From: Candidatus Uhrbacteria bacterium
GTDB taxonomy: Bacteria > Patescibacteriota > Patescibacteriia > GWA2-47-26
DNA: 62,097 nt
Reading direction: 5' to 3'
Assembly: GCA_016187515.1 (NCBI GenBank)
Contig: JACPJN010000001.1
Coordinates: forward strand, 1 to 62,097
Part shown: in pieces, positions 6,184 to 58,963 of the stretch
Numbering within the stretch: the first letter of the stretch is position 1
How the letters are laid out: each line of letters starts with the position of its first letter
The notes under the pieces: model-generated
What the model saw: the letters and a program-made list of their open reading frames with translations, nothing else
The model's database searches: none
Told to the model about the DNA's origin: nothing
Program-made: the position numbers and the translations under genes

Positions 6184-6256
6184 GGATTAATTATGAGGCC
6201 AGGGGCAGATTCGCCTTTGGCAGAGAATAAATCTTAAACTTAAATAAGGTCAGCAT

Positions 6257-8654: not shown

Positions 8655-8684
8655 TTGGCAGAAGTTTGGCAGGTGTGGTATAAT
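8655..8684 (+). promoter_or_regulatory. Extended -10 promoter
   Basis: TTGGCA, 18-nt spacer, TGgTATAAT (TATAAT 8679-8684). Confidence 0.6.
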
Positions 8685-8729
8685 AACCCAATAACCCAAT
8701 AACCCAATAACCCAATAACCCAATAACCC
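8682..8729 (+). repeat. Perfect tandem octamer (AATAACCC) x6
   Basis: Six exact head-to-tail copies counted. The array starts inside the -10 box and ends 6 nt before ATG 8736. Confidence 0.95.
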
Positions 8730-8735
8730 AATCTT

Positions 8736-9167
8736 ATGTCTAAATTCATCAAAACCGGTTTAGTCATTTCCGGGATAATTCTTTTCGGCGCCGGGTGCGC
8801 GCGAGGGGCCAAGGATTACGCCGCCCCGACTGCCCAAGCCCCGGATACGGGGGCGAACGCCGTGGCAGAAGGGAGCGTGCCAACGCCGGAGGCCGTAATT
8901 GAATATACTGACGAGGGATTTAATCCTTCCACCCTGCGCGTACTGGCCGGAACTAAAGTTACCTTTGTAAATAAAGGGGCTAAAGCGGTCTGGCCGGCTT
9001 CCGGCGTGCATCCCACTCATGATATTTGTCCGGGATTTGACGCGGGAAAGACCTTGGCAGCCGGGGAGAGTTATTCCTATGTATTTGAACAGGAGGCCGA
9101 ATGTCCCTTCCATAATCATGTCGCGCCGGGTGAAAAAGGCGCCATTGAAGTTAAGGTAGCAAAATAA
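8736..9167 (+). CDS. Cupredoxin-fold lipoprotein (plastocyanin/azurin-like)
   Basis: Signal peptide with lipobox LFGAGC. The C-terminal half has His/Cys ligand-like residues (HPTHDICPG ... CPFHNH) in a cupredoxin-like arrangement. Confidence 0.65.
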   Translation: MSKFIKTGLVISGIILFGAGCARGAKDYAAPTAQAPDTGANAVAEGSVPTPEAVIEYTDEGFNPSTLRVLAGTKVTFVNKGAKAVWPASGVHPTHDICPGFDAGKTLAAGESYSYVFEQEAECPFHNHVAPGEKGAIEVKVAK

Positions 9168-9562: not shown

Positions 9563-10333
9563 ATGGTCCAACTGCGCCTTGACAACTTGGCTAAACGCGG
9601 CAAGGTTCATCCCTTGCGTGTTTTGGAAGTTGTTGCCGGAAATACTCCGGGCGTTGATTCAGTTGAGCAGCTGCTCAACAGTCCGACCCCCGACAACCCC
9701 GGCATTGTAGATGGCCGTGCTTTGGCAATCTACCTGATGTTCCAAGGTAATTTGTGCGACATTGCGCTGCCGGATCTTGCAGGTGTCTTTGGCATCCAAC
9801 TCATGCAGGCGCGTTTGCTGTACATGAAAATTGCGCGCCGGCAGGATGCTGAACCCAAATTCAGGGCTGATCTTCAGCAGAAGGTTCAGCAACTGCAAGC
9901 AGCCGCAAGCGGGACAGCGGCAATACCGCAGACGACAGCGCCGCCGCCAGCCGCTGACGGCGAAGCCCCGGCAACTGTTCATGATGACAAAGTCGATATG
10001 GGTATTTTCGCGGCGGATGGAGAACCGATTGATAAGGTTGAAAAATGGCGTGTGATTTTTGCGGACGCGAGATTGGCGGGAAAAATAGTTGATTTCGCGA
10101 ATACGGAAATGATTGATGCGATCAATGCGGCGCTCAAACTGCTGCAGACGGGCCGGCTGCGCGACGATGTAAATGCTCGCCGGGCGGTTGAGCGCTTGCA
10201 CGCGGCAGGGGCGCAGATGCTTGAAATAGCAGAGATGTTTGCGGGGGAAACACCGCTGCAAGAGGCAGCCGGGGATCAGCATGGCGAATCACCGGCGGGG
10301 CAGGTGCATTCCGGGGACTCCGGAAGTTCGTAA
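9563..10333 (+). CDS. Hypothetical protein (256 aa)
   Basis: Strong SD (GAGGAGG) 7 nt upstream of ATG 9563. Ala/Pro-rich central linker. Confidence 0.6.
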   Translation: MVQLRLDNLAKRGKVHPLRVLEVVAGNTPGVDSVEQLLNSPTPDNPGIVDGRALAIYLMFQGNLCDIALPDLAGVFGIQLMQARLLYMKIARRQDAEPKFRADLQQKVQQLQAAASGTAAIPQTTAPPPAADGEAPATVHDDKVDMGIFAADGEPIDKVEKWRVIFADARLAGKIVDFANTEMIDAINAALKLLQTGRLRDDVNARRAVERLHAAGAQMLEIAEMFAGETPLQEAAGDQHGESPAGQVHSGDSGSS

Positions 10334-10407
10334 AGACAATCTCGGCCATAAGGCGGTGAAAGAGGGACACCGCCTCTTTATTTTCCCGGTCATTTGATTT
10401 GGCGGGG

Positions 10408-10477: not shown

Positions 10478-11167
10478 ATGCTTTTAGATGGCAGAAAAGC
10501 CCAGCTTTTAAGCGCGGTGGTAAAGGAATACGCCCGGACTGCCCAGCCGGTCGCTTCCGGACATTTACAAGAAGAATTAGGGGTTTCTTCCGCAACGGTA
10601 CGCAATGAGATGGCTGAGCTTGAGCGCGGAGGATATCTTCGTCAGCCGCATACTTCAGCCGGACGGGTTCCGACGGAGGAGGGCTATCGTTATTATGTCG
10701 CGCATTGTCTGGAGGAGCAGAATGTAAAAAACGAGGTGGATGAAATGCAGGCGACTGTGCGTCCCGCACTTCCGCATGAAGCGCGGATGAAACGACTCGC
10801 GCGCGAGCTTGCGAGTGAGATGCGCGAAGGAGTATTTATTGGATTTACTCCGCAGTCCTCCTATTATACCGGACTTTCGTATTTGTTTGACCAACCGGAA
10901 TTTGAATCAGTTGATTTTGTGCGCCACATCGGCGATATAGTTGATAACCTTGATCAGATTGTTGCGAAATTGTTTGAAGAAGTCGCGCCGGGAGTGCAAG
11001 TATACGTGGGTTCGGAAAATCCGTTTGGCGCGCAATGCGGAACCGTGCTTTTGCGCACCGGTATTGATCGGCCGATGATGGGGGTCTTGGGTCCGATGCG
11101 GATGGATTATGATCGGGCGATTGGGATGATGAAAGGACTCGGACGGATATTAGAGATTGGATATTAG
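10478..11167 (+). CDS. hrcA: Heat-inducible repressor HrcA (short, 229 aa)
   Basis: The N-terminal wHTH (RKAQLLSAVVKEYARTAQPVASGHL...SSATVRNEMAELE) is typical of HrcA. Context is CIRCE-hrcA-grpE-dnaK. Confidence 0.85.
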   Translation: MLLDGRKAQLLSAVVKEYARTAQPVASGHLQEELGVSSATVRNEMAELERGGYLRQPHTSAGRVPTEEGYRYYVAHCLEEQNVKNEVDEMQATVRPALPHEARMKRLARELASEMREGVFIGFTPQSSYYTGLSYLFDQPEFESVDFVRHIGDIVDNLDQIVAKLFEEVAPGVQVYVGSENPFGAQCGTVLLRTGIDRPMMGVLGPMRMDYDRAIGMMKGLGRILEIGY

Positions 11168-11177
11168 ATATTGCACT

Positions 11178-11699
11178 ATGGAACCACAAGAAAAAACAAT
11201 TGAGGAACTTAATAAGCAAGCCGAAGAATATCTGAACGGCTGGAAACGGGCGAAGGCGGATCTGATTAATTATCAAAAACAAGCGGAACGCGAGCGGGCG
11301 CAGTGGGCGATGTTTGCCAATGCCGCGTGCGTGAAAGCAATGCTGCCGGTGTTGGATAGTTTGGAGGCGGCGGTTGCTCCCACCCCTCCGCTCCCACCCC
11401 TCCTTACCTCCCCTCGGGCAGGGGAGGAAACAATTTCTCCCCCTTTTCAAGGGGGAGTTAGAGGGGGTCTTGTGGGAGGGATTGAAAAAATCCGCGATCA
11501 GATGGTGGAGGCATTGCGTGAAATGGGGGTGGAGCAGATAAAATCCGTAGGCGAGCCGGTCAATCCCGAGTTTCACGAGGTGATTGCGACAGAACCGAGT
11601 CAAGAACATGCCACAGGTTTGATTATTAAAGAAGCCCAGCGCGGCTATACCATGCACGGCAAAGTTCTGCGCGCGGCAAAGGTCATTGTAAGTGAGTAA
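11178..11699 (+). CDS. grpE: Nucleotide exchange factor GrpE carrying an in-frame repeat insert
   Basis: ATG 11178. KRAKADLINYQKQAERE, LLPVLDSLE and a C-terminal GY..HGKVLR.A.V are GrpE-like. Confidence 0.85.
   Translation: MEPQEKTIEELNKQAEEYLNGWKRAKADLINYQKQAERERAQWAMFANAACVKAMLPVLDSLEAAVAPTPPLPPLLTSPRAGEETISPPFQGGVRGGLVGGIEKIRDQMVEALREMGVEQIKSVGEPVNPEFHEVIATEPSQEHATGLIIKEAQRGYTMHGKVLRAAKVIVSE
11377..11480. repeat. Double-hairpin C/G-tract element inside grpE
   Basis: Near-identical to 58651-58732. Hairpins are CCTCCCC-N7-GGGGAGG and CTCCCCC-N7-GGGGGAG. Read as PTPPLPPLLTSPRAGEETISPPFQGGVRGG. Confidence 0.85.
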
Positions 11700-11829
11700 T
11701 AGAAGCCAGTTACACGCCATCACTACGCTAGTAAGCGCCAATTGGCGTATCCGTGGCGTAGTCAATGGCGTAAATTGGCCTCTACAAGTAAGCCATATAG
11801 GTAAATCATAAAATTAAGTAAAACAAGAT

Positions 11830-13653: not shown

Positions 13654-13850
13654 ACAGATGGCCACTGATGTTGGGCAGATAGCCACCGATCACGGATCAC
13701 CCCCTCTTAAGTTAAGAGGGGGTAGGGGGAGTTACGACAATTCACAATCAATCCCTCTCCCTCGCATGGGAGAGGGTAGGGTGAGGGTCGCGGGGATCCA
13801 CAACGATTTTCTCCCCCTCTTAAGTTAAGAGGGGGTAGGGGGAGTTATGA
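13654..13850. repeat. Cluster of short palindromic repeat units
   Basis: Contains GATGGCCACTGATGTTG...GATAGCCACCGATCAC (also at 48740-48805), two copies of CCCCCTCTTAAGTTAAGAGGGGGTAGGGGGAGTTA, and CCCTCTCCCTCGCATGGGAGAGGGTAGGGTGAGGGT. Confidence 0.85.
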
Positions 13851-13904
13851 CAATCACTCCGTCTTGTATTTTTCCACCGCCATGATACAATCCGGAATAC
13901 AATT

Positions 13905-14738
13905 ATGAAAGGCAATAAACAGATCGCCTTGTTTGAAGGGCAAAAAATCCGCCGTCATTGGGATGCGCAGAAGGAGGTATGGTATTTTTCGGTTGTGGAT
14001 ATTATTTTTGCGCTTACTGAAAGCGCCAATCCGACGGATTACTTGAAAAAGCTGAGAAAAAGAGATCCCGAACTTGCTGGCTACATAGGGACAAATTGTC
14101 CCCAGGTAGAAATGGCTACAGAAACGGGGAAAAAGAGGAAAATGTTAGCAGGAAATCCCGAACATTTGTTTAGAATTATTCAATCTATTCCGAGCAAAAA
14201 AGCCGAACCTATAAAGATTTGGTTAGCCAAAGTCGGGTACGAAAGAATTCAAGAGGTGTCTGACCCTGAAAAAGCATTAAACAGATCAAGATCATATTGG
14301 CAACGCATGGGACGGAGCGAAAAATGGATCCAACAGCGGATGATGGGGCAGGAGATACGAAATAAGCTTACGGATTATTGGAAACATAACGAAGTGAAGG
14401 AACAAGACGAATACGCAATACTCACGAACATTATTCACCAAGAATGGAGCGACTTGACGGTAAAGGAACACAAGAACTTAAAAAATCTGAACACGCAGAA
14501 TTTACGCGACCACATGTCGGACGCGGAGTTGGTGTTTACGGCGTTGGCGGAATTGTCTACGCGGCAAATTGCCGAAACAATGAGCACGAAAGGTTTTGAA
14601 GAAAATAAAATTCCCGCCAAAAAAGGCGGCCGCATCGCCAAGAACGCACGCAAGGAATTGGAAAACAAAACAGGCAAGAAAGTCGTCAGCGGAGAGAATT
14701 ATTTACCCTCCTCAAAAACGAGGAAGAATCTGAAGTAG
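13905..14738 (+). CDS. Bro-N domain protein (DinD/antirepressor-like)
   Basis: The N-terminus FEGQKIRRHWDAQKEVWYFSVVDIIFALTES fits the Bro-N pattern. The C-terminal half resembles DinD-type proteins. Confidence 0.7.
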   Translation: MKGNKQIALFEGQKIRRHWDAQKEVWYFSVVDIIFALTESANPTDYLKKLRKRDPELAGYIGTNCPQVEMATETGKKRKMLAGNPEHLFRIIQSIPSKKAEPIKIWLAKVGYERIQEVSDPEKALNRSRSYWQRMGRSEKWIQQRMMGQEIRNKLTDYWKHNEVKEQDEYAILTNIIHQEWSDLTVKEHKNLKNLNTQNLRDHMSDAELVFTALAELSTRQIAETMSTKGFEENKIPAKKGGRIAKNARKELENKTGKKVVSGENYLPSSKTRKNLK

Positions 14739-14749
14739 TGTGCAATCAA

Positions 14750-14890
14750 TCTCCCTCCCTTAAAATAAGGGAGGGTTGGGTGGGTTATGAATTTCACCTG
14801 TCATTGCGAGGCCGCCCATTCGGGCGGCCGCGGCAATCTCCTAAATAATCCCTCTCCCTCGCATGGGAGAGGGGAGGGTGAGGGTGAGGG
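14750..14890. repeat. Second cluster of the same palindromic units
   Basis: Contains CTCCCTCCCTTAAAATAAGGGAGGGTTGGGTGGGTTATGA, TGTCATTGCGAG...GCGGCAATCTC, and CCCTCTCCCTCGCATGGGAGAGGGGAGGGTGAGGGTGAGGG (a direct repeat of 13753-13788). Confidence 0.85.
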
Positions 14891-14952
14891 CACACCAAAT
14901 TTTCTCCCCGCTTTTGATTTTTTTCTCCTGATACTGTAAAATATGAGGAAGT

Positions 14953-15723
14953 ATGGAATTAATGTTTGATGAACAGCTTGCGATAAAGTATAAAAGCGCA
15001 TCACAAAGAGCACGCGTTTTAACTGAAAATTGGGTTGATAAATCAGTTTTTTGTCCTAATTGCGGACGTATAGATATAAATAAATATCCCAATAATCAAC
15101 CAGTCGCGGATTTTTTCTGTTCAAATTGCAAAGAAGATTACGAATTAAAAAGTAAGCAACATAGCATTGGCACAAAAATTCTTGACGGTGCCTATCGCAC
15201 AAAAATCGAGCGATTACGGAGCGATAGCAATCCTAATCTATTTGTGCTGAACTACCACCTGCAAAATTTATCAGTCCTTAATTTTTTTGTTATACCGAAG
15301 CACTTTTTCGTGCCAGGAATAATTGAGAAACGAAAGCCACTTGCGGCGAGTGCCAGACGCGCGGGTTGGATAGGTTCCAACATTCTTTTACAAAAAATTC
15401 CAAGAATCGGGAAAATATTTTTAGTGCGGCAACAACAAGTTGAATCAAAAGAGAAAGTACTTGCTGAATGGAAAAAGACGCTGTTCTTGCGAGAAGAAAA
15501 AGAAATATCCGCAAGAGGATGGTTATTAGATATCATGCGTTGTGTTGAAAAAATTGGGAAGCATGAATTTACCCTTAACGATGTTTATGAGTTTGAGAGT
15601 GAATTGGGTATACTTCATCCCGACAATAAACATATCAAAGACAAAATCCGTCAGCAATTGCAGGTGTTGCGCGATAAAGGTTATCTCGATTTCGTATCGC
15701 GCGGATATTATCGCCTGGCATAA
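14953..15723 (+). CDS. DpnI-family methyl-directed restriction endonuclease (Dam-replacing family)
   Basis: 256 aa. From memory it is collinear with R.DpnI: YKS.SQ.AR.LTE.WV...CPNCG, VADF.C..C...ELKSK, GAY, RKPL...ARRAGWIG.NI, and the C-terminal IK.KIRQQLQ.LRDK winged helix. Confidence 0.8.
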   Translation: MELMFDEQLAIKYKSASQRARVLTENWVDKSVFCPNCGRIDINKYPNNQPVADFFCSNCKEDYELKSKQHSIGTKILDGAYRTKIERLRSDSNPNLFVLNYHLQNLSVLNFFVIPKHFFVPGIIEKRKPLAASARRAGWIGSNILLQKIPRIGKIFLVRQQQVESKEKVLAEWKKTLFLREEKEISARGWLLDIMRCVEKIGKHEFTLNDVYEFESELGILHPDNKHIKDKIRQQLQVLRDKGYLDFVSRGYYRLA

Positions 15724-18061: not shown

Positions 18062-18140
18062 GATAGTCTCTTAGTCGCACGACTAGGAGAGTAGATGCAC
18101 GTACTTAAAACAAAAAATCATTCGCGTGCGCGAACGACTC

Positions 18141-18309
18141 TTTAGCCCGGGGAGCAGTGGAATCTTGCCTATCCTTGATTTTTCTACCAGCATGTATTAC
18201 GTAGTTTGCCCTTTGTTTTAATCCCTACATACCCGAGGATGCGCATTGCGTCTCGAGTTGTTTTTTTATTCAAAGTGGGGTAGAGTGAGGATACGACGAC
18301 TGAAGAAGC
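18141..18309 (+). repeat. Direct repeat S1: terminator + promoter + decayed gene start
   Basis: Aligns with 22193-22250 plus 22522-22632. Includes the hairpin CCCGAGGATGCGCATTGCGTCTCGAG plus a T-run, GGTAGAGT, and ACGACGACTGAAGAA where S2 has ATGACGACTGAAGAA. Confidence 0.8.
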
Positions 18310-20663: not shown

Positions 20664-20692
20664 TTGACAAGAATTTAGTTTCGTGTTAAATA
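20664..20692 (+). promoter_or_regulatory. Promoter of duplicated unit, copy 1
   Basis: TTGACA-N17-TAAATA. Confidence 0.65.
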
Positions 20693-20697
20693 GGATA

Positions 20698-20944
20698 CAC
20701 GAAAGGGGAAAACCATGACGCTCTTTTTGGTGTGCGTGCTGAATAGTACGGTTCCGCTCGATCGCAAGATGTATCTGCGCTTGTTTGCCGCGGCCCAGGC
20801 CATGCGCCAGTCCGGAGGCGCGCGCAAGTACGACCTTGATGGCGAGGGAAAGTTTTCCGGGCGGCTGACCACCACTTGGGTATCGATAAGCATCAATCGT
20901 TTGCTTACCCCGCTGTGGTTCACGCCACCGCGGGCTTGTTTTTT
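20698..20944 (+). ncRNA. Candidate unclassified structured RNA, copy 1 (~247 nt)
   Basis: Bounded by its own promoter and a hairpin + T-run terminator (20908-20944). It is near-identical to 24277-24542 except for one substitution and a 20-nt indel. Confidence 0.45.
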
Positions 20945-22064: not shown

Positions 22065-22192
22065 AAGATTAGATCGCCGCGCCCCGACCGAAGCGTCGGG
22101 GCTCGCGATGACGGATTGCGAGAACATTCTCTCATCCGCGCGAATGTGCAACTTTATGCAAATACTTAGGACAAAAATTCCTCGCAGGCGCT

Positions 22193-22250
22193 AAAGACGT
22201 TTTAGCCCGGAGAGCAATGGAGTCGCGCCTGTCCTTGATTTTTTCTGCCC
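22193..22250 (+). repeat. Direct repeat S2, part a
   Basis: TTTTAGCCCGGAGAGCAATGGAGTCGCGCCTGTCCTTGATTTTTTCT aligns with 18141-18187. Confidence 0.75.
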
Positions 22251-22287
22251 GCATGATATCATGCTTTTTAGAGAATAAGGAGGTAGG

Positions 22288-22500
22288 ATGTCAAGCAAAC
22301 GGCACCTACGCAGACGTTCTTGTACCTCAAAAATTAAACATCAAACCGAGGAGGCAGCTAGAAATCACGCCCGTCAGCTCGGTATCGGTTATTTACCGTA
22401 TCTTTGCGGTTTTTGCGGAGGATGGCATGTCGGACGTCCGGATCGCGCAAAAAGGCAAAGCCGCGCGGCGAAGGCACGCAATGCGCGTGCGCAACGATGA
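22288..22500 (+). CDS. Small basic zinc-ribbon protein (70 aa)
   Basis: Strong SD AAGGAGG. YLCGFCGGWHVG has a CxxCGGWH motif. The gene sits between the two halves of repeat S2. Confidence 0.6.
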   Translation: MSSKRHLRRRSCTSKIKHQTEEAARNHARQLGIGYLPYLCGFCGGWHVGRPDRAKRQSRAAKARNARAQR

Positions 22501-22521
22501 GTTACTGTCGCAGTGCCTTGC

Positions 22522-22632
22522 GTAGTTTGCCCTTTCTTTTAATCCCGACATACCCGAGGATGCACATTGCGTCTCGGGGTTGTTTTTTACTCGAAGTATG
22601 GTAGAGTAGGGGATATGACGACTGAAGAAATG
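22522..22632 (+). repeat. Direct repeat S2, part b (includes terminator 22552-22588 and an extended -10)
   Basis: Aligns with 18201-18309. Hairpin CCCGAGGATGCACATTGCGTCTCGGG plus a T-run, then TGGTAGAGT. Confidence 0.8.
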
Positions 22633-24242: not shown

Positions 24243-24271
24243 TTGACAAGAATTTAGTTTCGTGTTAAATA
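24243..24271 (+). promoter_or_regulatory. Promoter of duplicated unit, copy 2
   Basis: TTGACA-N17-TAAATA, identical to copy 1. Confidence 0.65.
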
Positions 24272-24276
24272 GGATA

Positions 24277-24542
24277 CACGAAAGGGGAAAACCATGACGC
24301 TCTTTTTGGTGTGCGTGCTGAACAGTACGGTTCCGCTCGATCGCAAGATGTATCTGCGCTTGTTTGCCGCGGCCCAGGCCATGCGCCAGTCCGGAGGCGC
24401 GCGCAAGTACGACCTTGATGGCGAGGGAAAGTTTTCCGGGCGGCTGACCACCACTTGGGTATCGTGACTTCCCGCAACTGCGCATAAGCATCAATCGTTT
24501 GCTTACCCCGCTGTGGTTCACGCCACCGCGGGTTTGTTTTTT
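24277..24542 (+). ncRNA. Candidate unclassified structured RNA, copy 2 (~266 nt)
   Basis: Same unit as 20698-20944 with a 20-nt replacement insert at 24465-24484. Terminator hairpin 24507-24532 plus a T-run. Confidence 0.45.
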
Positions 24543-32582: not shown

Positions 32583-32644
32583 AATAGCGGTTCATAACCC
32601 CTCCCAACCTCCCCTTATCTTAAGGGGAGGAGATTAAGTTGTAT

Positions 32645-33769
32645 ATGGCAAACAAAGATTACTATCAAATTCTAGGAGTTGCCAAGTCCGCGTCGGCTGC
32701 CGAGATCAAGGATGCGTTCCGCAAGAAAGCCATGGAGCATCATCCGGATCGGGGGGGAAACGCGGAAAAGTTTAAGGAGTTGAATGAGGCGTATCAGGCG
32801 CTGGGGAGTTCGGAGACGCGCAAACAATACGACCAGTACGGCTCCAGCTTTGAGCAAATGCGGCGGCAGGGATTTTATGGTGGATTTTCCGCCAAAGGCG
32901 GATCCGCCTCTGGCGGAGATCCGCGCGAAATGGGTTTTGATATTGGCGATCTTTCGGATTTGTTTGGCGGGCTGGGGGATATTTTCGGGTTTTCCGCCAG
33001 AGGCGGATCCGCCTCTGGCGGAGGTGGTAGAACGCGCGGACGCGATATTGAAGTGGCCATTGAAATTCCGTTTGAAGAGGCGGTCCATGGCGGCACGCGC
33101 GAGTTGGAGCTTGAAAAAGTAAATCAATGCGCGCGCTGCAGCGGCTCGGGCGCGGAGCCGGGCAGCGGATTTAAAAATTGTCCAACCTGCGGCGGTAAAG
33201 GAAAAGTATCCAAAGTGGTGAATTCGTTTTTTGGCGCCATGCAAACCGTAACCACTTGCGGTTCCTGCCATGGGATTGGAAAATACCCGGAAAAAGAGTG
33301 CGGCGCTTGTCACGGCAAAGGAGTCGCGCGCGGAAAACGCGTGCTCAAAGTAAAAATTCCGGCCGGGATTGAAGACGGCGGAACGATCAGATTTTCTGGT
33401 GAGGGTGAGGCAGTGCGCGCCGGAGGCAGCGGAGATTTATATTTGCACGTGCGGATTAAAGAGTCGAAAGAATTTGAACGCCGCGAAAATGATATTTGGA
33501 GCAAAGCGGTAGTTTCATTTAAAACCGCGGCGCTGGGAGGAGTGGTGGATATTCCGACCGTAGACGGTCTGCGCGAGCTTAAAATTCCGGCTGGCACGCA
33601 GTCCGGCAGTGTGATGAGGATTAAGGGTCTGGGCGTGCCGCATTTAGGACGTGGCCGCCCCGGGGATGAACCCCGGGCAAGGGGCGATCACTATGTGGAG
33701 ATCCACATCAGAGTCCCAGAACATCTTTCGCGGCACCAGAAAAGGATGCTGGAGGAATGGGAAGGATAG
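32645..33769 (+). CDS. dnaJ: Co-chaperone DnaJ
   Basis: J domain DYYQILGV...HPD and four CxxCxGxG zinc-finger repeats. Confidence 0.95.
   Translation: MANKDYYQILGVAKSASAAEIKDAFRKKAMEHHPDRGGNAEKFKELNEAYQALGSSETRKQYDQYGSSFEQMRRQGFYGGFSAKGGSASGGDPREMGFDIGDLSDLFGGLGDIFGFSARGGSASGGGGRTRGRDIEVAIEIPFEEAVHGGTRELELEKVNQCARCSGSGAEPGSGFKNCPTCGGKGKVSKVVNSFFGAMQTVTTCGSCHGIGKYPEKECGACHGKGVARGKRVLKVKIPAGIEDGGTIRFSGEGEAVRAGGSGDLYLHVRIKESKEFERRENDIWSKAVVSFKTAALGGVVDIPTVDGLRELKIPAGTQSGSVMRIKGLGVPHLGRGRPGDEPRARGDHYVEIHIRVPEHLSRHQKRMLEEWEG
32887..33024. repeat. Two copies of a TCCGCC/GGCGGA cruciform element inside the DnaJ G/F linker
   Basis: TTCCGCCAAAGGCGGATCCGCCTCTGGCGGAG (32887-) and TTCCGCCAGAGGCGGATCCGCCTCTGGCGGAG (32992-), both read as S-A-(K/R)-G-G-S-A-S-G-G. 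Confidence 0.8.
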
Positions 33770-44865: not shown

Positions 44866-46584
44866 ATGAAAAAATTACTTTGGGCAGTGGTGGTCATTTT
44901 CGTAGCTTTTTGGGCAGTTTGGATTGGCGTATTTTATTACAAAAATTTACGCGGGATTGGACCAGCGGTCCGAGCGCCGAAAGAGGATATTGCGGAGTTG
45001 ATTGATAACCCTCCCACGCCCTCCCTTACTTTAAGGGAGGGGGAGAACCGAACGGGCATGCCGCTTAAACTCCCGCCCGGATTTTCCATTGAAATTTTTG
45101 CCAAAGATTTGCCAGGGGCGCGGGTGATGGTTCCCGATTCATTTGGTGGATTTCTAGTGAGCCAAACATCTGAAGGAAATGTATCAGAGATCATGGGTGA
45201 TCAAGAAAGTGGAAGAGCAGTAGACTTCGGTACGTACTTGAGTGGTTTAAGAAAACCACATGGTATGGTTGTTGATCCAAAAGATCAAGAACATTTTTTC
45301 ATTGCAGAGGAGGATAAAATATCTGAATTCTATGTGGCTACAATGGAAGGACCCGGATTTAGTAAAATTGTTGACTTGCCATCCGGCGGGAATCATACGA
45401 CTCGCACGCTGGGATTTGGGCCAGATGGACGGCTGTATGTATCTATTGGTTCGTCCTGCAATGTGTGTAATGAAAATGATCCGCGACGGGCAGCAATTTA
45501 TGTAGTGGACATTGAAAATAAAAAACTTATTCCGTACGCTACTGGTTTGCGCAATTCGGTATTCTTTACTTGGAGCTATGTTGACGGACGCATGTGGGCA
45601 ACCGAGATGGGGCGGGATTTACTGGGTGATGACCTGCCGCCGGATGAGATTAATATTGTGGAAGGCCCTTCGGCAGACTCAGGGCAAAATCCTCCGGATT
45701 TTGGGTGGCCAATTTGCTATGGAAAAAATATTCATGATAGTGTGTTCGACAAGAATGTATATGTACGCGATCCATGCGCAGATAAAGTGCCGTCTTACAT
45801 TGACTTGCCAGCCCATTCGGCGCCGCTGGGGTTGGCATTTATTCCAAAAGATGCGGGATGGCCAAAAGAATATGAGGGCGATTTATTGGTGGCCTACCAT
45901 GGCTCATGGAATCGCACTAAACCAACCGGTTATAAAGTCGTGCGTATAAAACTAGACGCGCAAGGAAACTATGAAGGTATGGAAGATTTTATTTCCGGCT
46001 GGCTTCAGGATGATGGCACTGCGCTTGGCCGGCCAGTGGACATCCTTGTACAATCCGGCGGAGTGATGTATATTTCAGATGATAAAGCTGGCGTGATTTA
46101 TCGGGTTACCTATTCACCATTAACTCATAACATTTCTCAATCTATGCGTATTGAAAGTCCGGCGTTTGGACAAAACGAACGCATTCCTAAAAAATATACT
46201 TGCGATGGGGAGGATGTAAATCCGCCGCTGACTATCGCTGATGTTCCGGAAGGGACTAAGAGTTTAGCGCTGATTCATGATGATCCGGACGCGACTGACG
46301 GAACATGGGTACATTGGACGGTTTGGAATATTACGCCGGACACTCGTGCGCTGGAGGAAGGAAAAGTTCCGCAAGGGGCAATGGAAGGCACTCAGAGCTG
46401 GGGACGCACCGGTTACGGCGGCCCTTGCCCGCCCTCCGGCGCGCATCGTTACTTTTTCAAACTTTACGCGCTGGATGCGACGCTGGATTTGCCGGCCTCT
46501 ACAGATGCGCAAGGACTTACAAGCGCGATGGAAGGACATATTTTAGCACAGGCAGAACTGATAGGATTATATGAAAGGCAATAA
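44866..46584 (+). CDS. Membrane-anchored fusion: PQQ/sorbosone-dehydrogenase-like beta-propeller plus a YbhB/YbcL (PEBP) domain
   Basis: N-terminal TM. Propeller-like core (GFGPDGRLYVSIGS, DFGWP.CYG). The C-terminus IPKKYTCDGEDVNPPL...DDPDA...HW..WNI...GYGGPCPP.G.HRY.F.LYALD is typical of YbhB/YbcL. Confidence 0.7.
   Translation: MKKLLWAVVVIFVAFWAVWIGVFYYKNLRGIGPAVRAPKEDIAELIDNPPTPSLTLREGENRTGMPLKLPPGFSIEIFAKDLPGARVMVPDSFGGFLVSQTSEGNVSEIMGDQESGRAVDFGTYLSGLRKPHGMVVDPKDQEHFFIAEEDKISEFYVATMEGPGFSKIVDLPSGGNHTTRTLGFGPDGRLYVSIGSSCNVCNENDPRRAAIYVVDIENKKLIPYATGLRNSVFFTWSYVDGRMWATEMGRDLLGDDLPPDEINIVEGPSADSGQNPPDFGWPICYGKNIHDSVFDKNVYVRDPCADKVPSYIDLPAHSAPLGLAFIPKDAGWPKEYEGDLLVAYHGSWNRTKPTGYKVVRIKLDAQGNYEGMEDFISGWLQDDGTALGRPVDILVQSGGVMYISDDKAGVIYRVTYSPLTHNISQSMRIESPAFGQNERIPKKYTCDGEDVNPPLTIADVPEGTKSLALIHDDPDATDGTWVHWTVWNITPDTRALEEGKVPQGAMEGTQSWGRTGYGGPCPPSGAHRYFFKLYALDATLDLPASTDAQGLTSAMEGHILAQAELIGLYERQ
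45005..45045. repeat. CCCTCCC-TTACTTTAA-GGGAGGG hairpin element in frame in gene 44866..46584
   Basis: ATAACCCTCCCACGCCCTCCCTTACTTTAAGGGAGGGGGAG is read as NPPTPSLTLREGEN. It belongs with 13699, 13813, 14751, 32592 and 47533. Confidence 0.85.
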
Positions 46585-47400: not shown

Positions 47401-47940
47401 ATGAATAAAAAACGCCTTATTTTACTAATTTTGATAATACTCGGAGTTTGGTATTTTTGGGGACGAGGACAAAAGGCAGATGGGCCGGCGCAGCCCGGTG
47501 TTGAGGAGGCCGCGGTTGAGGAAGAGATCGCAAATAACCCTCCCCAACCCTCCCTTACTTTAAGGGAGGGAGATAATGTGGTGCGGGTGCATTATTTCAC
47601 CAAGGAGGCATTGGCGTCGTGTGCAGTTGAAACCACTTCGATTGAGCAAGCCATTGATCCCAAATACGGACATTTCGCGGCCGGGGCGCTGGTGACTATG
47701 ACATTGCCTTTGTCCGCAGAGCACGCGGCGCAATATGCATCCGCGCTTCCGACTGGGACGCGGCTCTTAACCATGCAGATTGATAAAGAGGGGACCGCGC
47801 GCGCCGATTACAATAGCGCGCTGGACGGGCAGGGCGCGCCGTGTCTTAAAGCCGAGCGCCGCGCGCAGATAGAACGCACGCTTAAAGAATTTTCCGAGAT
47901 TAAAAAGGTGGTGATTACGGTGGAGGGGGAAGTGTGGTAG
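47401..47940 (+). CDS. Membrane-anchored GerMN-like protein
   Basis: ATG 47401, signal anchor LILLILIILGVWYFW. The C-terminal domain resembles GerMN (tentative). Confidence 0.45.
   Translation: MNKKRLILLILIILGVWYFWGRGQKADGPAQPGVEEAAVEEEIANNPPQPSLTLREGDNVVRVHYFTKEALASCAVETTSIEQAIDPKYGHFAAGALVTMTLPLSAEHAAQYASALPTGTRLLTMQIDKEGTARADYNSALDGQGAPCLKAERRAQIERTLKEFSEIKKVVITVEGEVW
47533..47573. repeat. Same hairpin element in frame in gene 47401..47940
   Basis: AATAACCCTCCCCAACCCTCCCTTACTTTAAGGGAGGGAGA is read as NNPPQPSLTLREGDN, in the same frame and orientation as at 45005. Confidence 0.85.
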
Positions 47941-49616: not shown

Positions 49617-49694
49617 CCCCCACACCATTGGGCGACATTGGCGTCCAAAGGACGCCAATGTTGTGCGTAGCACAGTCGCCCATTGGTGTGGGGG
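49617..49694 (+). promoter_or_regulatory. Y-shaped (three-way junction) structure in the putative long leader of gene 49842
   Basis: An outer 20-bp stem (CCCCCACACCATTGGGCGAC / GTCGCCCATTGGTGTGGGGG, one mismatch) encloses the hairpins ATTGGCGTCC-AAA-GGACGCCAAT and TGTGC-GTA-GCACA. TTGACA at 49576. Confidence 0.5.
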
Positions 49695-49725
49695 TCCGGT
49701 GGGTCTGGGGTGGTGGTCCGGCAGA

Positions 49726-49767
49726 CCCGCCAAACTTTCCTTCAGCAGAAGGTAAAGTTAGGCGGGG
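49726..49767. repeat. Intergenic copy of the hairpin found in frame at 1790-1831
   Basis: CCCGCCAAACTTTCCTTCAGCAGAAGGTAAAGTTAGGCGGGG. Confidence 0.8.
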
Positions 49768-49841
49768 AAGGTGCCCGGCCATTGACATCTTGGGCTGTCA
49801 CTCGGCCAACCACTCCGACGATTGTCGGAGAGGAGGCAGTC

Positions 49842-50963
49842 ATGTCCGAAGCAACGCAGAAACAAGAACCGGAAGATCTTTCCAAGCTCAAGGGGCCGAG
49901 TTCGTGGTACACGGCGGCGCTGCTGTTTTCGCTCGTCGTGTTTGTTACGAGCATACTGTTTCGGATCCATCATGAGTCAATCAATGTCGACGCCATGAAT
50001 GGCTTGTTGTTGGCTGTGAATTTGCTCGTAATCTGGGGGTCGCTCGCATCTACGGCGCTTGTTTCCGTAGGGTGGTTTGTTTGTAACCGGCTGGGCCACA
50101 AGATCTGGTGGTGGAAAGACGGCGACACCTGGCGCGTGACCGCGCGGAAATACCCGGATGAGGCCAAGGGACTCGTGATTGAGGCGCAAGTCAAGGCGCG
50201 GCCGAGTTTCAAGCTCCGTTGGGGAAGCAAGGGTTGGCACAACGCGATCAGCGACGACGGCTGGGTGGTCAACCTGAAAGGCGAGCGCTTGCATCTCCGG
50301 GATACTTCCCAAGCGACACTCGACAACGAAGGTCTGACCGGCGCGGTGCTTAAGTTCCTTTTCGACGCCGGCTTTGCCTGGCGTATTGTCCCGCTTCAGG
50401 CCGGACGGATGCCTCGATTCGTGGATCGTGGCGGACGCGGGATCGAGGTGTACTACAAGGATGACGGGGTTGACATCGAGGAAATCCTCAAGTCCCGCGA
50501 TTGCGCTGACTACCACAAGCGCATGCAGAAGAAGGCGGGGGAACATGACGCGTCATACCGTCTGATGTATGAAGTCCTCAAAGCCCTTGGTTTGCCCAGC
50601 CCGGTATTCGACGAAACGCTTGTGGAGCGGCTGGAACAGGTACAAGAGGCGAGTCAGCGGTTGCGCGAGGAGCACGATCGGGCGCTTGACATTCTCTGCG
50701 CCGCGTTGCCTGCCTTGCGCGACGCGGTAAAGCGTGCCGGCAGACCGCCCACGAAAATCAAGGCCATGAAGGAACTGTGTCGAGTGCTTGTACACTTGGA
50801 CGCACACCTTCCCAAGGACAGTGTGCTCCGAGCGCAACTCGACGTTTCCGAAGCGTCGCGGCGCATGGTCCTGCGTGCGCTGGATGAGGAGGAGGCCAAG
50901 CTTGCGGCGGCGCGTGGGCCGGGTGTGCAGGGTGATGGCTCCATCGTAGGAGAAGGAGGGTAG
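49842..50963 (+). CDS. Hypothetical membrane protein (373 aa)
   Basis: SD GGAGAGGAGG before ATG 49842. Two N-terminal TM helices and a helical C-terminus. Confidence 0.6.
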   Translation: MSEATQKQEPEDLSKLKGPSSWYTAALLFSLVVFVTSILFRIHHESINVDAMNGLLLAVNLLVIWGSLASTALVSVGWFVCNRLGHKIWWWKDGDTWRVTARKYPDEAKGLVIEAQVKARPSFKLRWGSKGWHNAISDDGWVVNLKGERLHLRDTSQATLDNEGLTGAVLKFLFDAGFAWRIVPLQAGRMPRFVDRGGRGIEVYYKDDGVDIEEILKSRDCADYHKRMQKKAGEHDASYRLMYEVLKALGLPSPVFDETLVERLEQVQEASQRLREEHDRALDILCAALPALRDAVKRAGRPPTKIKAMKELCRVLVHLDAHLPKDSVLRAQLDVSEASRRMVLRALDEEEAKLAAARGPGVQGDGSIVGEGG

Positions 50964-50974
50964 GGGTTCTCCCG

Positions 50975-51032
50975 TTCACCCCCTCTAACTCCCCCTCGCC
51001 TGTCCGCCTAGGGCGGGGAAAGGGGGAGAAAT
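50975..51032. repeat. Reverse-orientation relative of the grpE/NMNAT element
   Basis: CACCCCCTCTAACTCCCCC...GGGGGAGAAA matches the reverse complement of TTTCTCCCCC...GGGGGAGTTAGAGGGGG. Confidence 0.7.
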
Positions 51033-58369: not shown

Positions 58370-58963
58370 ATGCGGATTGGTTTGTTTATCGGCAGATTTC
58401 AGCCCCTGCACAAGGGGCATGTTTTAATAATAAAAAAATGCGGGCGACAGGTTGATCGGCTAGTTATTGGGCTGGGCTCTTCCAACGCGGAACTAGCTTG
58501 CAAAAATCCCTTTACAGCAGGGGAGCGGCGTGAGATGATCAGGAGAGGAATGAAGGAGGCCGGGGTGCGTAACTATGCGGTGGCGGAGCTTCCGGACTTT
58601 AAGAGTGATGCGGAGTGGGTAAAGGAGGTGTTGGAGCGTGTACGTGGAGTTGCTCCCACCCCTCCTAACCTCCCCTCGGGCAGGGGAGGAAAAATTGTTT
58701 CTCCCCCTTTTCAAGGGGGAGTTAGAGGGGGTCCAGCATCATTTGATCTCGCCTGGTCCGGAAGTGAGTGGGTGCAGCGCGTGTTTAAGGAAGAGGGTCT
58801 GCCGATCGAACCGATTAAAGAATTTCCCGGACTTTCCGCCACAAAAATTCGCCGCAAGATGTCCAAAGGGCTGCCCTGGCTAAAGTATGTGCCGCTTTCG
58901 GTACGCAAGTATCTGCGCGAGATCGGGGCGGTAAAACGCGTAAGAACACTATGCTCGCGCTAA
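58370..58963 (+). CDS. Nicotinamide-nucleotide adenylyltransferase (archaeal NadM-type) carrying an in-frame repeat insert
   Basis: GLFIGRFQPLHKGHV (the HxGH-type motif of cytidylyltransferase-fold enzymes) and a C-terminal SATKIR-like motif. Confidence 0.8.
   Translation: MRIGLFIGRFQPLHKGHVLIIKKCGRQVDRLVIGLGSSNAELACKNPFTAGERREMIRRGMKEAGVRNYAVAELPDFKSDAEWVKEVLERVRGVAPTPPNLPSGRGGKIVSPPFQGGVRGGPASFDLAWSGSEWVQRVFKEEGLPIEPIKEFPGLSATKIRRKMSKGLPWLKYVPLSVRKYLREIGAVKRVRTLCSR
58651..58732. repeat. Double-hairpin C/G-tract element inside the NMNAT gene
   Basis: TGCTCCCACCCCTCCTAACCTCCCCTCGGGCAGGGGAGGAAAAATTGTTTCTCCCCCTTTTCAAGGGGGAGTTAGAGGGGGT is read as APTPPNLPSGRGGKIVSPPFQGGVRGG. Confidence 0.85.

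Follow-up and report, generated by a model that had tools for sequence, protein, structure and literature searches.

A triplex-type structured repeat lies in frame in grpE and an NMN adenylyltransferase gene of a Candidatus Uhrbacteria bacterium

An element in frame in grpE and the NMN adenylyltransferase gene

The stretch analyzed here, called the window below, comprises 62,097 nucleotides of contig JACPJN010000001.1 (assembly GCA_016187515.1) from a Candidatus Uhrbacteria bacterium. It carries grpE and a gene for an archaeal NadM-type nicotinamide mononucleotide (NMN) adenylyltransferase (NMNAT), whose product is a cytidylyltransferase-fold protein with archaeal-type NMN adenylyltransferases as its nearest relatives in a PDB search. 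Each of these open reading frames (ORFs) contains a copy of one short element made of two hairpin-forming modules (Table 1). An earlier interpretation of the letters alone, the sequence-only reading, had reported a near-identical element in frame in both genes, and we verified this. Over their 81 common columns the copies differ by three substitutions and one 2-nt gap (~94% identity). A 33-mer of the 3′ part that is identical in both copies, TCTCCCCCTTTTCAAGGGGGAGTTAGAGGGGGT, occurs exactly twice in the window, compared with no occurrence in 100 shuffles.

The 5′ half of the element is read in different frames in the two hosts, as PLLTSPRAGEE in grpE and as NLPSGRGGK in the NMNAT gene, and the common frame resumes at SPPFQGGVRGG. 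The translations given earlier for the first hairpin (TSPRAGEE versus LPSGRGGK) were thus correct, and the small indel to which frame restoration had been attributed could be refined to a 14-nt tandem duplication of the 5′ terminal block plus a 2-nt shorter spacer in grpE. Together these add a net 12 nt, so that the frame is regained. A similar duplication of the 5′ block is present at another locus, L177. The spacers of the genic copies measure 10, 13, 13 and 10 nt, the differences being multiples of 3. The compensated grpE frameshift and the spacer differences in threes indicate that selection keeps the host ORFs open. The element can be read through without a stop in three of its six frames. 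The predicted peptides spanning the junctions are ...AAVAPTPPLPP... and ...GGVRGGLVGGIEK... for GrpE and ...VRGVAPTPPNLPSGR... for NMNAT. On the opposite strand, an antisense ORF of 306 codons (minus strand, 10845-11765) faces hrcA and grpE and crosses the stop-free element; since it exceeds either real gene in length, it would be picked by a naive longest-ORF caller and constitutes an annotation trap.

Orthologues were checked for residues homologous to the inserts. In an alignment of 23 NMNAT sequences, the ~30 insert residues were found only in the window protein and in P0122 (76% identity), whereas the 21 other orthologues (37-72% identity) showed a clean gap at that position. The GrpE segment from LDSLE to KIRDQ is 50 residues long here versus 19-30 residues in most of 120 relatives, whose names include Parcubacteria, Uhrbacteria and Patescibacteria; the relatives with the shortest loop read LDSLEAAGSGSGVEKIRDQ at the position of the element. 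Alignments to PDB entries break at the inserts, with query residues 75 to 105 corresponding to residues 108 to 119 of E. coli GrpE, and query residues 87 to 124 of NMNAT to residues 85 to 91 of MJ0541 (1f9a). These comparisons show that the grpE and NMNAT elements are insertions.

The placement of the inserts in surface loops, which the sequence-only reading had anticipated, was checked with AlphaFold2 models, and both fall in low-confidence coils of otherwise confident models. The NMNAT insert, residues 94-126, is modeled as a coil linking a helix to a strand (predicted local distance difference test score, pLDDT, 42-53; mean of the model, 88.8). That of GrpE is a coil at residues 67-93 in P0001 numbering (pLDDT 63-71; mean, 87.9), between the long N-terminal helix and the following helix. 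The inserts thus lie in loops, and they would be tolerated there as solvent-exposed, disordered Pro/Gly stretches. The same sites are occupied in independent assemblies from other samples. The NMNAT gene of L120 (Logan SRR13554777), which encodes P0122, has the element at the same codon position, a GrpE fragment (P0045) has it at the grpE site (..SPTPPNLPSGRGGNDSISPPFEGGVRWG..), and the GrpE of L246 has a decayed copy there, still ending in GGGGGGGTGGGAGC.

The loop at the helix-helix turn is expanded in about one-fifth of the 120 GrpE relatives. Repeats in this loop were verified on DNA in three cases, namely, the window, L246 and L121. In L121 the repeat is an unrelated palindrome, GTCATTTCGACCGAAGCG...GGGATGAC (10247-10340; also written GTCATTTCGACCGAAGCGAAGCGGAGTGGAGAAATC...GGGATGAC), encoding VISTEAKRSGEIS...SLDSARDD. 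A second copy of it lies 350 nt upstream in the hrcA-grpE spacer (9896-9931), in a locus syntenic with that of the window (hrcA-grpE-dnaK-BroN). Further loops look derived from repeats by peptide only, among them those of P0010 and P0015 (PSP.PLP.GEG..RRSGEG), which resemble a module of the TMECO type described below.

Anatomy and class of the modules

The element consists of two modules of ~32 nt, inverted to each other and separated by 8-13 nt. Each module is composed of a pyrimidine arm, a loop of 3-7 nt, a complementary purine arm, 2-3 nt and a mirror image of the purine arm. In module 1 of the grpE copy, a perfect 8-bp hairpin occupies 11407-11427, and the third block mirrors the adjacent arm. 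Full-length copies have terminal inverted repeats (GCTCCCACC...GGTGGGAGC). Several copies lack part of the 3′ end, and those of L231 and L246 terminate in GGTGGGAG(C). We compared mirror and direct repeats as third blocks in 117 independent hairpins of the fetched loci that lay outside the search patterns, were asymmetric and had a G-rich third block. The mirror was the better description in 67 cases and the direct repeat in 13 (binomial p=6e-10), and 89 of the 117 were perfect mirrors if T may replace A. Folding of the single-stranded doublet with ViennaRNA gave either two hairpins with an outer closing stem or one long imperfect hairpin, with Z values of ~-2 to -4; this program shows the hairpins, triplets being outside its model.

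The arrangement of three blocks matches a known kind of motif. It is said to have been described as BoxC in E. coli by Bachellier et al. in the 1990s and was reportedly named the potential intrastrand triplex (PIT) element by Hoyne and Maher in 2000. In the TMECO survey (Holder et al. 2015, PMC4666352), a class II triplex motif is defined as a pyrimidine stem followed by the purine stem that complements it and by a second purine stem in mirror order, with stems of 6-15 nt and loops of 1-6 nt. Module 2 conforms to this definition as CTCCCCCT-tttca-AGGGGGAG-tta-GAGGGGGT, and module 1 does so on the minus strand as CCTCCCCT-gcccg-AGGGGAGG-taa-GGAGGGGT. Since this three-block rule is the sequence requirement of an antiparallel purine-motif intrastrand triplex, the element was placed in that class. 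The TMECO consensus given in the same source is CCCTCNCCC N3-6 GGGNGAGGG N3 GGGNGAGGG. Two sibling modules of the window (13753-13787 and 14850-14884) are exact matches to it when a second loop of 2 nt is permitted, with a chance expectation of none. With a query of 51 nt that includes the former module (13745-13795), matches of 85% over 40 nt were obtained in 1445 of the 5426 E. coli genomes, for example in the yhjG/yhjE spacer; these matches are intergenic BoxC copies. The grpE and NMNAT modules have 8-nt stems, CCTCCCCT and CTCCCCCT, which differ from CCCTCNCCC, and they are thus members of the class but not of the TMECO subfamily. Judged by its sequence, the building block of the element is the already published BoxC/PIT/TMECO intrastrand triplex motif.

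The same source also describes the behavior of such motifs (PMC4666352). For TMECO it counts 3610 copies among 262 genomes of proteobacteria, and it finds cyanobacteria to hold many G/C-rich motifs. TMECO single-stranded DNA (ssDNA) forms a triplex in vitro, as seen by circular dichroism and nuclear magnetic resonance (NMR), and no triplex signal was obtained in vivo. PIT/BoxC motifs stall DNA polymerase in vitro and have been linked to local genome instability in E. coli; in the tests reported there, PIT elements had no promoter or terminator activity and did not block polymerase in vivo. Purine-motif triplexes do not form in RNA. The survey links BoxC/TMECO to no transposons, phages or plasmids, and it notes that inverted "palindromic" pairs occur.

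The element described here shares with these motifs the succession of a C-rich arm, a loop of 3-6 nt, a G-rich arm, a loop of 2-3 nt and a mirrored G-rich arm, as well as dispersal in multiple copies, inverted pairs and the lack of a target-site duplication or a linked transposase. It differs in having its own terminal inverted repeat and in its host, a bacterium of the candidate phyla radiation (CPR), a group seemingly outside the 2015 survey (PMC4666352). The genomic setting also differs. All 23 TMECO copies of E. coli MG1655 are intergenic, whereas 4 of the 11 loci of the window are in frame within genes, essential ones included. Altogether the window holds 13 modules, 6 of which are in frame within ORFs. 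Seven loci are intergenic although the window is 88% coding. Random insertion would thus have given more genic copies than are present, yet such copies are far commoner here than in E. coli.

A scan of the whole window against Rfam returned no family at gathering thresholds, and permissive E-values gave only meaningless miRNA-like matches; the element is thus not a known RNA family. Two other identities were considered and rejected. A G-quadruplex reading of the purine blocks is conceivable for some modules, but published NMR of the E. coli motif favored the triplex. An intron or other excised element fits poorly, because simple hairpins of 81-105 nt correspond to no intron class and the frame is kept.

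Distribution, spread and explanation of the element

The exact 19-mer AGGGGGAGTTAGAGGGGGT was found at no fewer than 119 loci in representative genomes of many phyla, including, among the matches listed, Bacteroidota, Cyanobacteria, Patescibacteria, Omnitrophota, Planctomycetota, Proteobacteria and Chloroflexota. Most listed matches have the complementary C-arm before the 19-mer, and an inverted partner module is frequent. The module 1 pattern occurred at more than 120 metagenome loci, as singletons and doublets, and about 22 of 127 metagenomic matches lay within ORFs that stay open for at least 50 codons on each side. The 19-mer was nearly absent from viral contigs (2 matches), which makes carriage by phages unlikely. 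In cyanobacterial loci (L015, L019, L021, L032, L045, L048, L049, L056, L060 and L098), module doublets lie 6-30 nt from a conserved sequence, CTTGTGTGTACACCGTAG, which is also found inverted nearby, suggesting that these modules sit in or beside a larger element resembling a miniature inverted-repeat transposable element (MITE).

Several other proteins of related bacteria contain the insert. The peptide PTPPNLPSGRGG...SPPFQGGVRGG was also found in TrxB and RluA of Candidatus Uhrbacteria, in a RuvB, in a pyruvate kinase (Pyk) and in another GrpE. Six independent genic copies in forward orientation (GrpE, NMNAT, Pyk, TrxB, RuvB and RluA) use the same Pro/Gly-rich frame, whereas the CysS of L214 holds the element in reverse orientation and has a different peptide. 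Sibling modules lie within genes for UvrC, Fpg, RadA, a phosphoglucomutase-family enzyme and CobQ on metagenomic contigs of other phyla, all hosts confirmed with Pfam, and within that of a probable TonB-dependent receptor, the only host of this set lacking Pfam confirmation. A HMMER search with the 31-residue insert gave 4 matches at E<=0.001 (the pyruvate kinase, the P0045 GrpE fragment, one biased match and one repeat-like protein), and a protein word-index search with a 59-residue concatenate of insert peptides gave none. Some hosts carry more than one repeat-derived stretch in frame: there are three in the CysS of L214 (APPLTPPPQGGETNQFPPLPEGRLGGVGA, PSPQPSPARGEGVKRIPSPFMGEGQGEG and PSPVLRTPSPEGVEDG) and at least three in the UvrC of L229 (NSPNPSLEKEGKLRG, TPPNLPFERGGMGPTPLLTKEGLGEV and SPPNIGGVSRQTGRGG).

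The NMNAT inserts of the window and L120 allow the evolution of the element to be followed. Their module 1 sequences are identical at 39 of 40 positions, whereas the coding DNA on either side has clearly diverged further. Module 2 of L120 has two compensatory stem-pair changes, from CTCCCCCT/AGGGGGAG to CCCCTCCT/AGGAGGGG, which the third block follows by going from GAGGGGGT to GGGGTGGT. Because this version is a subfamily also present in L214 and L231, gene conversion with other copies, or replacement, is favored over independent point mutations, and we infer that conversion homogenizes the copies. Under either process the three-block rule is maintained. The near-identity of module 1 and the compensatory changes in module 2 point to a constraint or to conversion acting on the element at the DNA level.

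The sequence-only reading had likened the element to the Rickettsia palindromic elements (RPEs), which are palindromic selfish DNA of ~100-150 bp found in frame in many Rickettsia housekeeping genes (Ogata et al. 2000, as related in PMC10969869). The comparison is apt for the mode of insertion: here, too, a palindromic repeat has entered unrelated ORFs without breaking their frame, at sites that the fold allows, in housekeeping genes of a reduced-genome bacterium, at the protein surface and with intergenic copies in addition. Membership of the RPE family does not follow from this. By their descriptions, RPEs form sequence families of their own within the Rickettsia lineage, whereas the present element measures 81-105 nt and is built of G/C-block triplex-type modules common to several phyla.

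In-frame insertion of small palindromes is known beyond Rickettsia, with ERIC, BOX and QMITE1 as examples (PMC10969869). Intragenic repetitive extragenic palindromic (REP) sequences with GTAG/CGTC tags were described in Opitutus, Thauera and others, where dimers encode 20-30 residues and the hosts include uvrA/B/C/D (Di Nocera et al. 2013, PMC3733652); REP doublets form REPINs (Bertels and Rainey 2011, PMC3116915). Like our modules, these are palindromic units of 20-40 nt, often in inverted dimers, and DNA repair genes are hosts in both cases (UvrC, RuvB, RadA and Fpg here). Unlike them, the element has no GTAG/CGTC tag at the hairpin foot, its linkers being TTA or TAA, and it has the additional mirror-repeat third block; the GGTAGG of some siblings belongs to their second loop and third block and is not a REP tag. 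Moreover, neither a gene for a REP-associated tyrosine transposase nor an insertion sequence was seen within the window. The terminal inverted repeats are a MITE-like trait, while the lack of target-site duplications in nine aligned copies and of an insertion sequence in the window sets the element apart from MITEs.

The sequence-only reading had known of no characterization of the element for this kind of organism. Literature searches found no in-frame repeats of such kind in CPR bacteria and no triplex-motif (BoxC/PIT) repeats inside protein-coding genes, and a full-text search for the literal element sequence returned nothing. To judge from these searches, that view holds for CPR bacteria, but neither for the building block, which was known as BoxC/PIT/TMECO, nor for in-frame palindromes as such, of which RPEs and intragenic REPs are examples. 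What appears to be new is the occurrence of triplex-motif repeats in protein-coding genes, and of in-frame repeats of this kind in CPR bacteria.

The explanation that we favor, with a probability of about 0.7, is that the element is a selfish or neutral structured repeat whose copies are filtered by frame, stop codons and loop tolerance, and which is translated as a disordered Pro/Gly stretch. It would belong to a small noncoding, structure-forming repeat family dispersed across many bacterial phyla, copies of which would have landed in, or spread into, protein-coding genes in a CPR lineage (Patescibacteria, Parcubacteria-like). A copy would persist there only if the added length is divisible by three, if the reading frame through it has no stop, and if the Pro/Gly-rich peptide that it encodes is placed in a loop or linker exposed to solvent, which can tolerate it as a disordered stretch. 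The hosts would remain functional with the insert translated, and the element would bring no benefit to GrpE or NMNAT; we infer both the translation of the insert and its neutrality or selfishness. The likeness of copies within a genome would reflect recent spread or gene conversion. Plausible routes would depend on ssDNA hairpins or triplexes and involve either a Y1-transposase-like activity or template switching during replication; such routes would fit the lack of target-site duplications combined with a dependence on single-strand structure.

Some observations sit uneasily with this explanation. Target-site duplications were not visible in nine aligned copies, Pfam scans of the 44 ORFs of the window revealed no transposase family, Y1_Tnp included, and presence/absence polymorphism between near-identical genomes was not seen, L121 and L122 being identical. 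As BoxC showed no link to mobile elements in the survey (PMC4666352), spread may be nontranspositional or very rare. The conservation of module 1 together with the clustering of modules at heat-shock genes (in grpE, after dnaK and before dnaJ) could mean a function at the nucleic acid level, and the single frame used by all six forward genic copies suggests some selection on peptide properties, although the number is small.

The possible function at the nucleic acid level leads to a rival explanation, which we consider unlikely, whereby the element is a signal whose mRNA or ssDNA structure modulates translation, mRNA stability, fork passage or recombination, perhaps as a heat-shock regulator or thermoregulator. 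Stem pairing and the mirror block are kept in diverged copies, with compensatory changes between orthologues, module 1 is far better conserved between orthologues than its flanks, the module before dnaJ includes a sequestrable, Shine-Dalgarno-like GGAGGAG, and the polymerase stalling in vitro and instability in E. coli mentioned above (PMC4666352) would agree with such a role. Nevertheless, the hosts have unrelated functions (NMNAT, pyruvate kinase, TrxB, RluA, CysS and membrane-anchored proteins), the same source reports for PIT neither promoter or terminator activity nor, in vivo, polymerase blocking or a triplex signal, and it states that purine-motif triplexes do not form in RNA. The conservation, moreover, is equally explained by gene conversion, given the L120 module 2 subfamily in L214 and L231.

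If selection acted on the peptide instead, the 27-35 Pro/Gly-rich residues would benefit their hosts as a flexible linker or interaction motif, repeatedly recruited by CPR proteins, and the hairpins would be incidental. The six forward copies do share the PTPPNLPSGRGG..SPPFQGGVRGG frame and leave the other open frame (LFLPLFKGELEG) unused, and the insert is kept in orthologues at 71-76% identity. However, the same DNA is read in two frames, the grpE of the window having its first half in the other one, the CysS copy is reversed and gives a different peptide, and most copies of the window are intergenic; the element is thus not a protein-level motif. In addition, the hairpin arms covary in DNA, and disorder is predicted for the peptides. 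A filter that removes the hydrophobic frame accounts more simply for the frame preference, and we regard recruitment of the peptide as improbable. An assembly or binning artefact, in which a repeat created a chimera in this metagenome-assembled contig, had been named by the sequence-only reading as an outcome that would undo its claim. The contig does come from an uncultured organism, and short repeats can mislead assemblers. Yet the flanks join up as the halves of a single conserved gene, both in one frame, a sequencing read is longer than the element (81-105 nt), and the independent assemblies share the codon position (L120 for NMNAT; P0045 and L246 for GrpE), which rules out such an error for practical purposes and makes it the least credible of these explanations.

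The presence of such motif pairs, presumably translated, in grpE, ruvB, trxB, cysS and the genes for NMNAT and pyruvate kinase of CPR bacteria connects two literatures that have stood apart, on in-frame selfish palindromes and on intrastrand triplex motifs, and extends a Rickettsia-style phenomenon to another reduced-genome lineage, one probably dependent on other organisms. Essential genes can hold strong formers of non-B DNA. The inserts also account for some of the unusual variation in length and of the "low-complexity" P/G stretches seen in CPR proteins, features that can mislead annotation and homology searches. Loops with and without the insert offer a natural construct for studying the effects of triplexes in vivo on replication, transcription and translation. 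A bolder version holds that BoxC/PIT-type motifs are pan-bacterial and actively spreading, inserted through their own hairpin or triplex structure and not by a dedicated transposase, that they routinely colonize loops of essential CPR proteins, and that the GrpE turn and similar sites are recurrent landing pads; several relatives carry triplex-motif inserts at that turn, and another has an unrelated GTCAT-type palindrome there. We find this generalization doubtful; if true, it would reveal an overlooked general source of protein-length variation and of polymerase-blocking structures in essential genes.

Further modules and repeats in the window

The features of the window are collected in Table 1. 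Insertion status was checked against orthologues for the grpE and NMNAT copies. The sequence-only reading had mentioned an intergenic relative in reverse orientation; this relative is present, as a single module rather than a doublet.

Table 1. Positions of the element copies, their parts and related modules in the window
Feature	Position	Strand	Remarks
grpE ORF, host of copy 1	11157..11699	+	Pfam GrpE E=2.4e-37
Element copy 1, in-frame doublet in grpE	11376..11480	+	105 nt, 35 codons; reads APTPPLPPLLTSPRAGEETISPPFQGGVRGGLVGG
5′ terminal block GCTCCCACCCCTCC (14 nt), tandem duplicate in grpE copy	11376-11389 + 11390-11403	+	Frame shift +2; direct sequence reading
Module 1 of copy 1	11396..11427	+	ACCCCTCC-TTA-CCTCCCCT-cgggc-AGGGGAGG; predicted purine-motif triplex former on minus strand
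Spacer of grpE copy, AAACAATT	11428..11435	+	2 nt shorter than copy 2 spacer AAAAATTGTT
Module 2 of copy 1	11437..11468	+	CTCCCCCT-tttca-AGGGGGAG-TTA-GAGGGGGT; 8-nt stems, loops of 5 and 3 nt
GTGGGAGGG, remnant of 3′ terminal inverted repeat	11472..11480	+	Full terminus GGTGGGAGC, complement of 5′ GCTCCCACC
NMN adenylyltransferase (archaeal NadM-type) ORF, host of copy 2	58370..58963	+	Pfam PF01467 (CTP_transf_like); PDB 1f9a E=2.6e-26
Element copy 2, in-frame doublet in NMNAT	58652..58732	+	81 nt, 27 codons; reads APTPPNLPSGRGGKIVSPPFQGGVRGG; modules 58658-58689 and 58701-58732
Three intergenic modules right after dnaK stop	13697..13854	+	13700-13735, 13753-13788, 13813-13848; middle one fits TMECO consensus
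Two intergenic modules after Bro-N gene	14750..14890	+	14753-14790, 14850-14890; second fits TMECO consensus
Intergenic module directly 5′ of dnaJ	32594..32636	+	Purine arm GGGGAGGAG Shine-Dalgarno-like, ends 12 nt before ATG at 32645
In-frame single module (NPPTPSLTLREGE)	45005..45047	+	Linker after N-terminal membrane helix, GSDH+PEBP protein, ORF 44866..46584
In-frame single module (NNPPQPSLTLREGD)	47534..47576	+	Linker after N-terminal membrane helix, GerMN-domain protein, ORF 47401..47940
Intergenic single module sharing GAGGGGGAGTTAGAGGGGGT	50978..51031	-	CCGCC..GGCGG palindrome nested in loop; 15 nt past stop of ORF 49683..50963

The hairpin of the module 5′ of dnaJ would sequester its Shine-Dalgarno-like arm, and we speculate that it could be a structure-controlled ribosome-binding site of a heat-shock gene. 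dnaJ itself (32645..33769; Pfam DnaJ, DnaJ_CXXCXGXG and DnaJ_C) contains two 95%-identical in-frame copies of another double palindrome, TTTTCCGCCAAAGGCGGATCCGCCTCTGGCGGAG, at 32875-32918 and 32980-33023, in the Gly/Phe-rich linker of the protein (FSAKGGSASGG and FSARGGSASGG). This palindrome also occurs at 6189-6225. The module at 50978-51031 carries the same CCGCC..GGCGG motif in its loop, as do gammaproteobacterial copies (L043). Downstream of dnaK, the region 13905-15723 holds a Bro-N-domain gene flanked by five triplex modules, followed by a gene for a DpnI-like restriction endonuclease of the Dam-replacing family; the Bro-N gene is syntenic in L121.

Other repeats were seen in the window. 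A duplication of ~280 nt, with copies at 20664-20944 and 24243-24542, 3.6 kb apart, is 100% identical over 222 nt and then 98% identical over 59 nt. It ends in a terminator-like hairpin with a T-run and has neither an Rfam match nor a convincing ORF, and it may be an unclassified small RNA or the boundary of a cassette. Further intergenic pieces are repeated between 18113-18286 and 22173-22607. The intergenic region 8682-8737 is a perfect tandem array of about six copies of the octamer AATAACCC. Finally, a 41-nt sequence, CCCGCTTAACTTTACCCTCTGCTGATGGAAAGTTTGGCGGG, lies at 1790-1830 and, inverted, at 49726-49766, 48 kb away, the two being 93% complementary, as in a small dispersed palindrome-like repeat.

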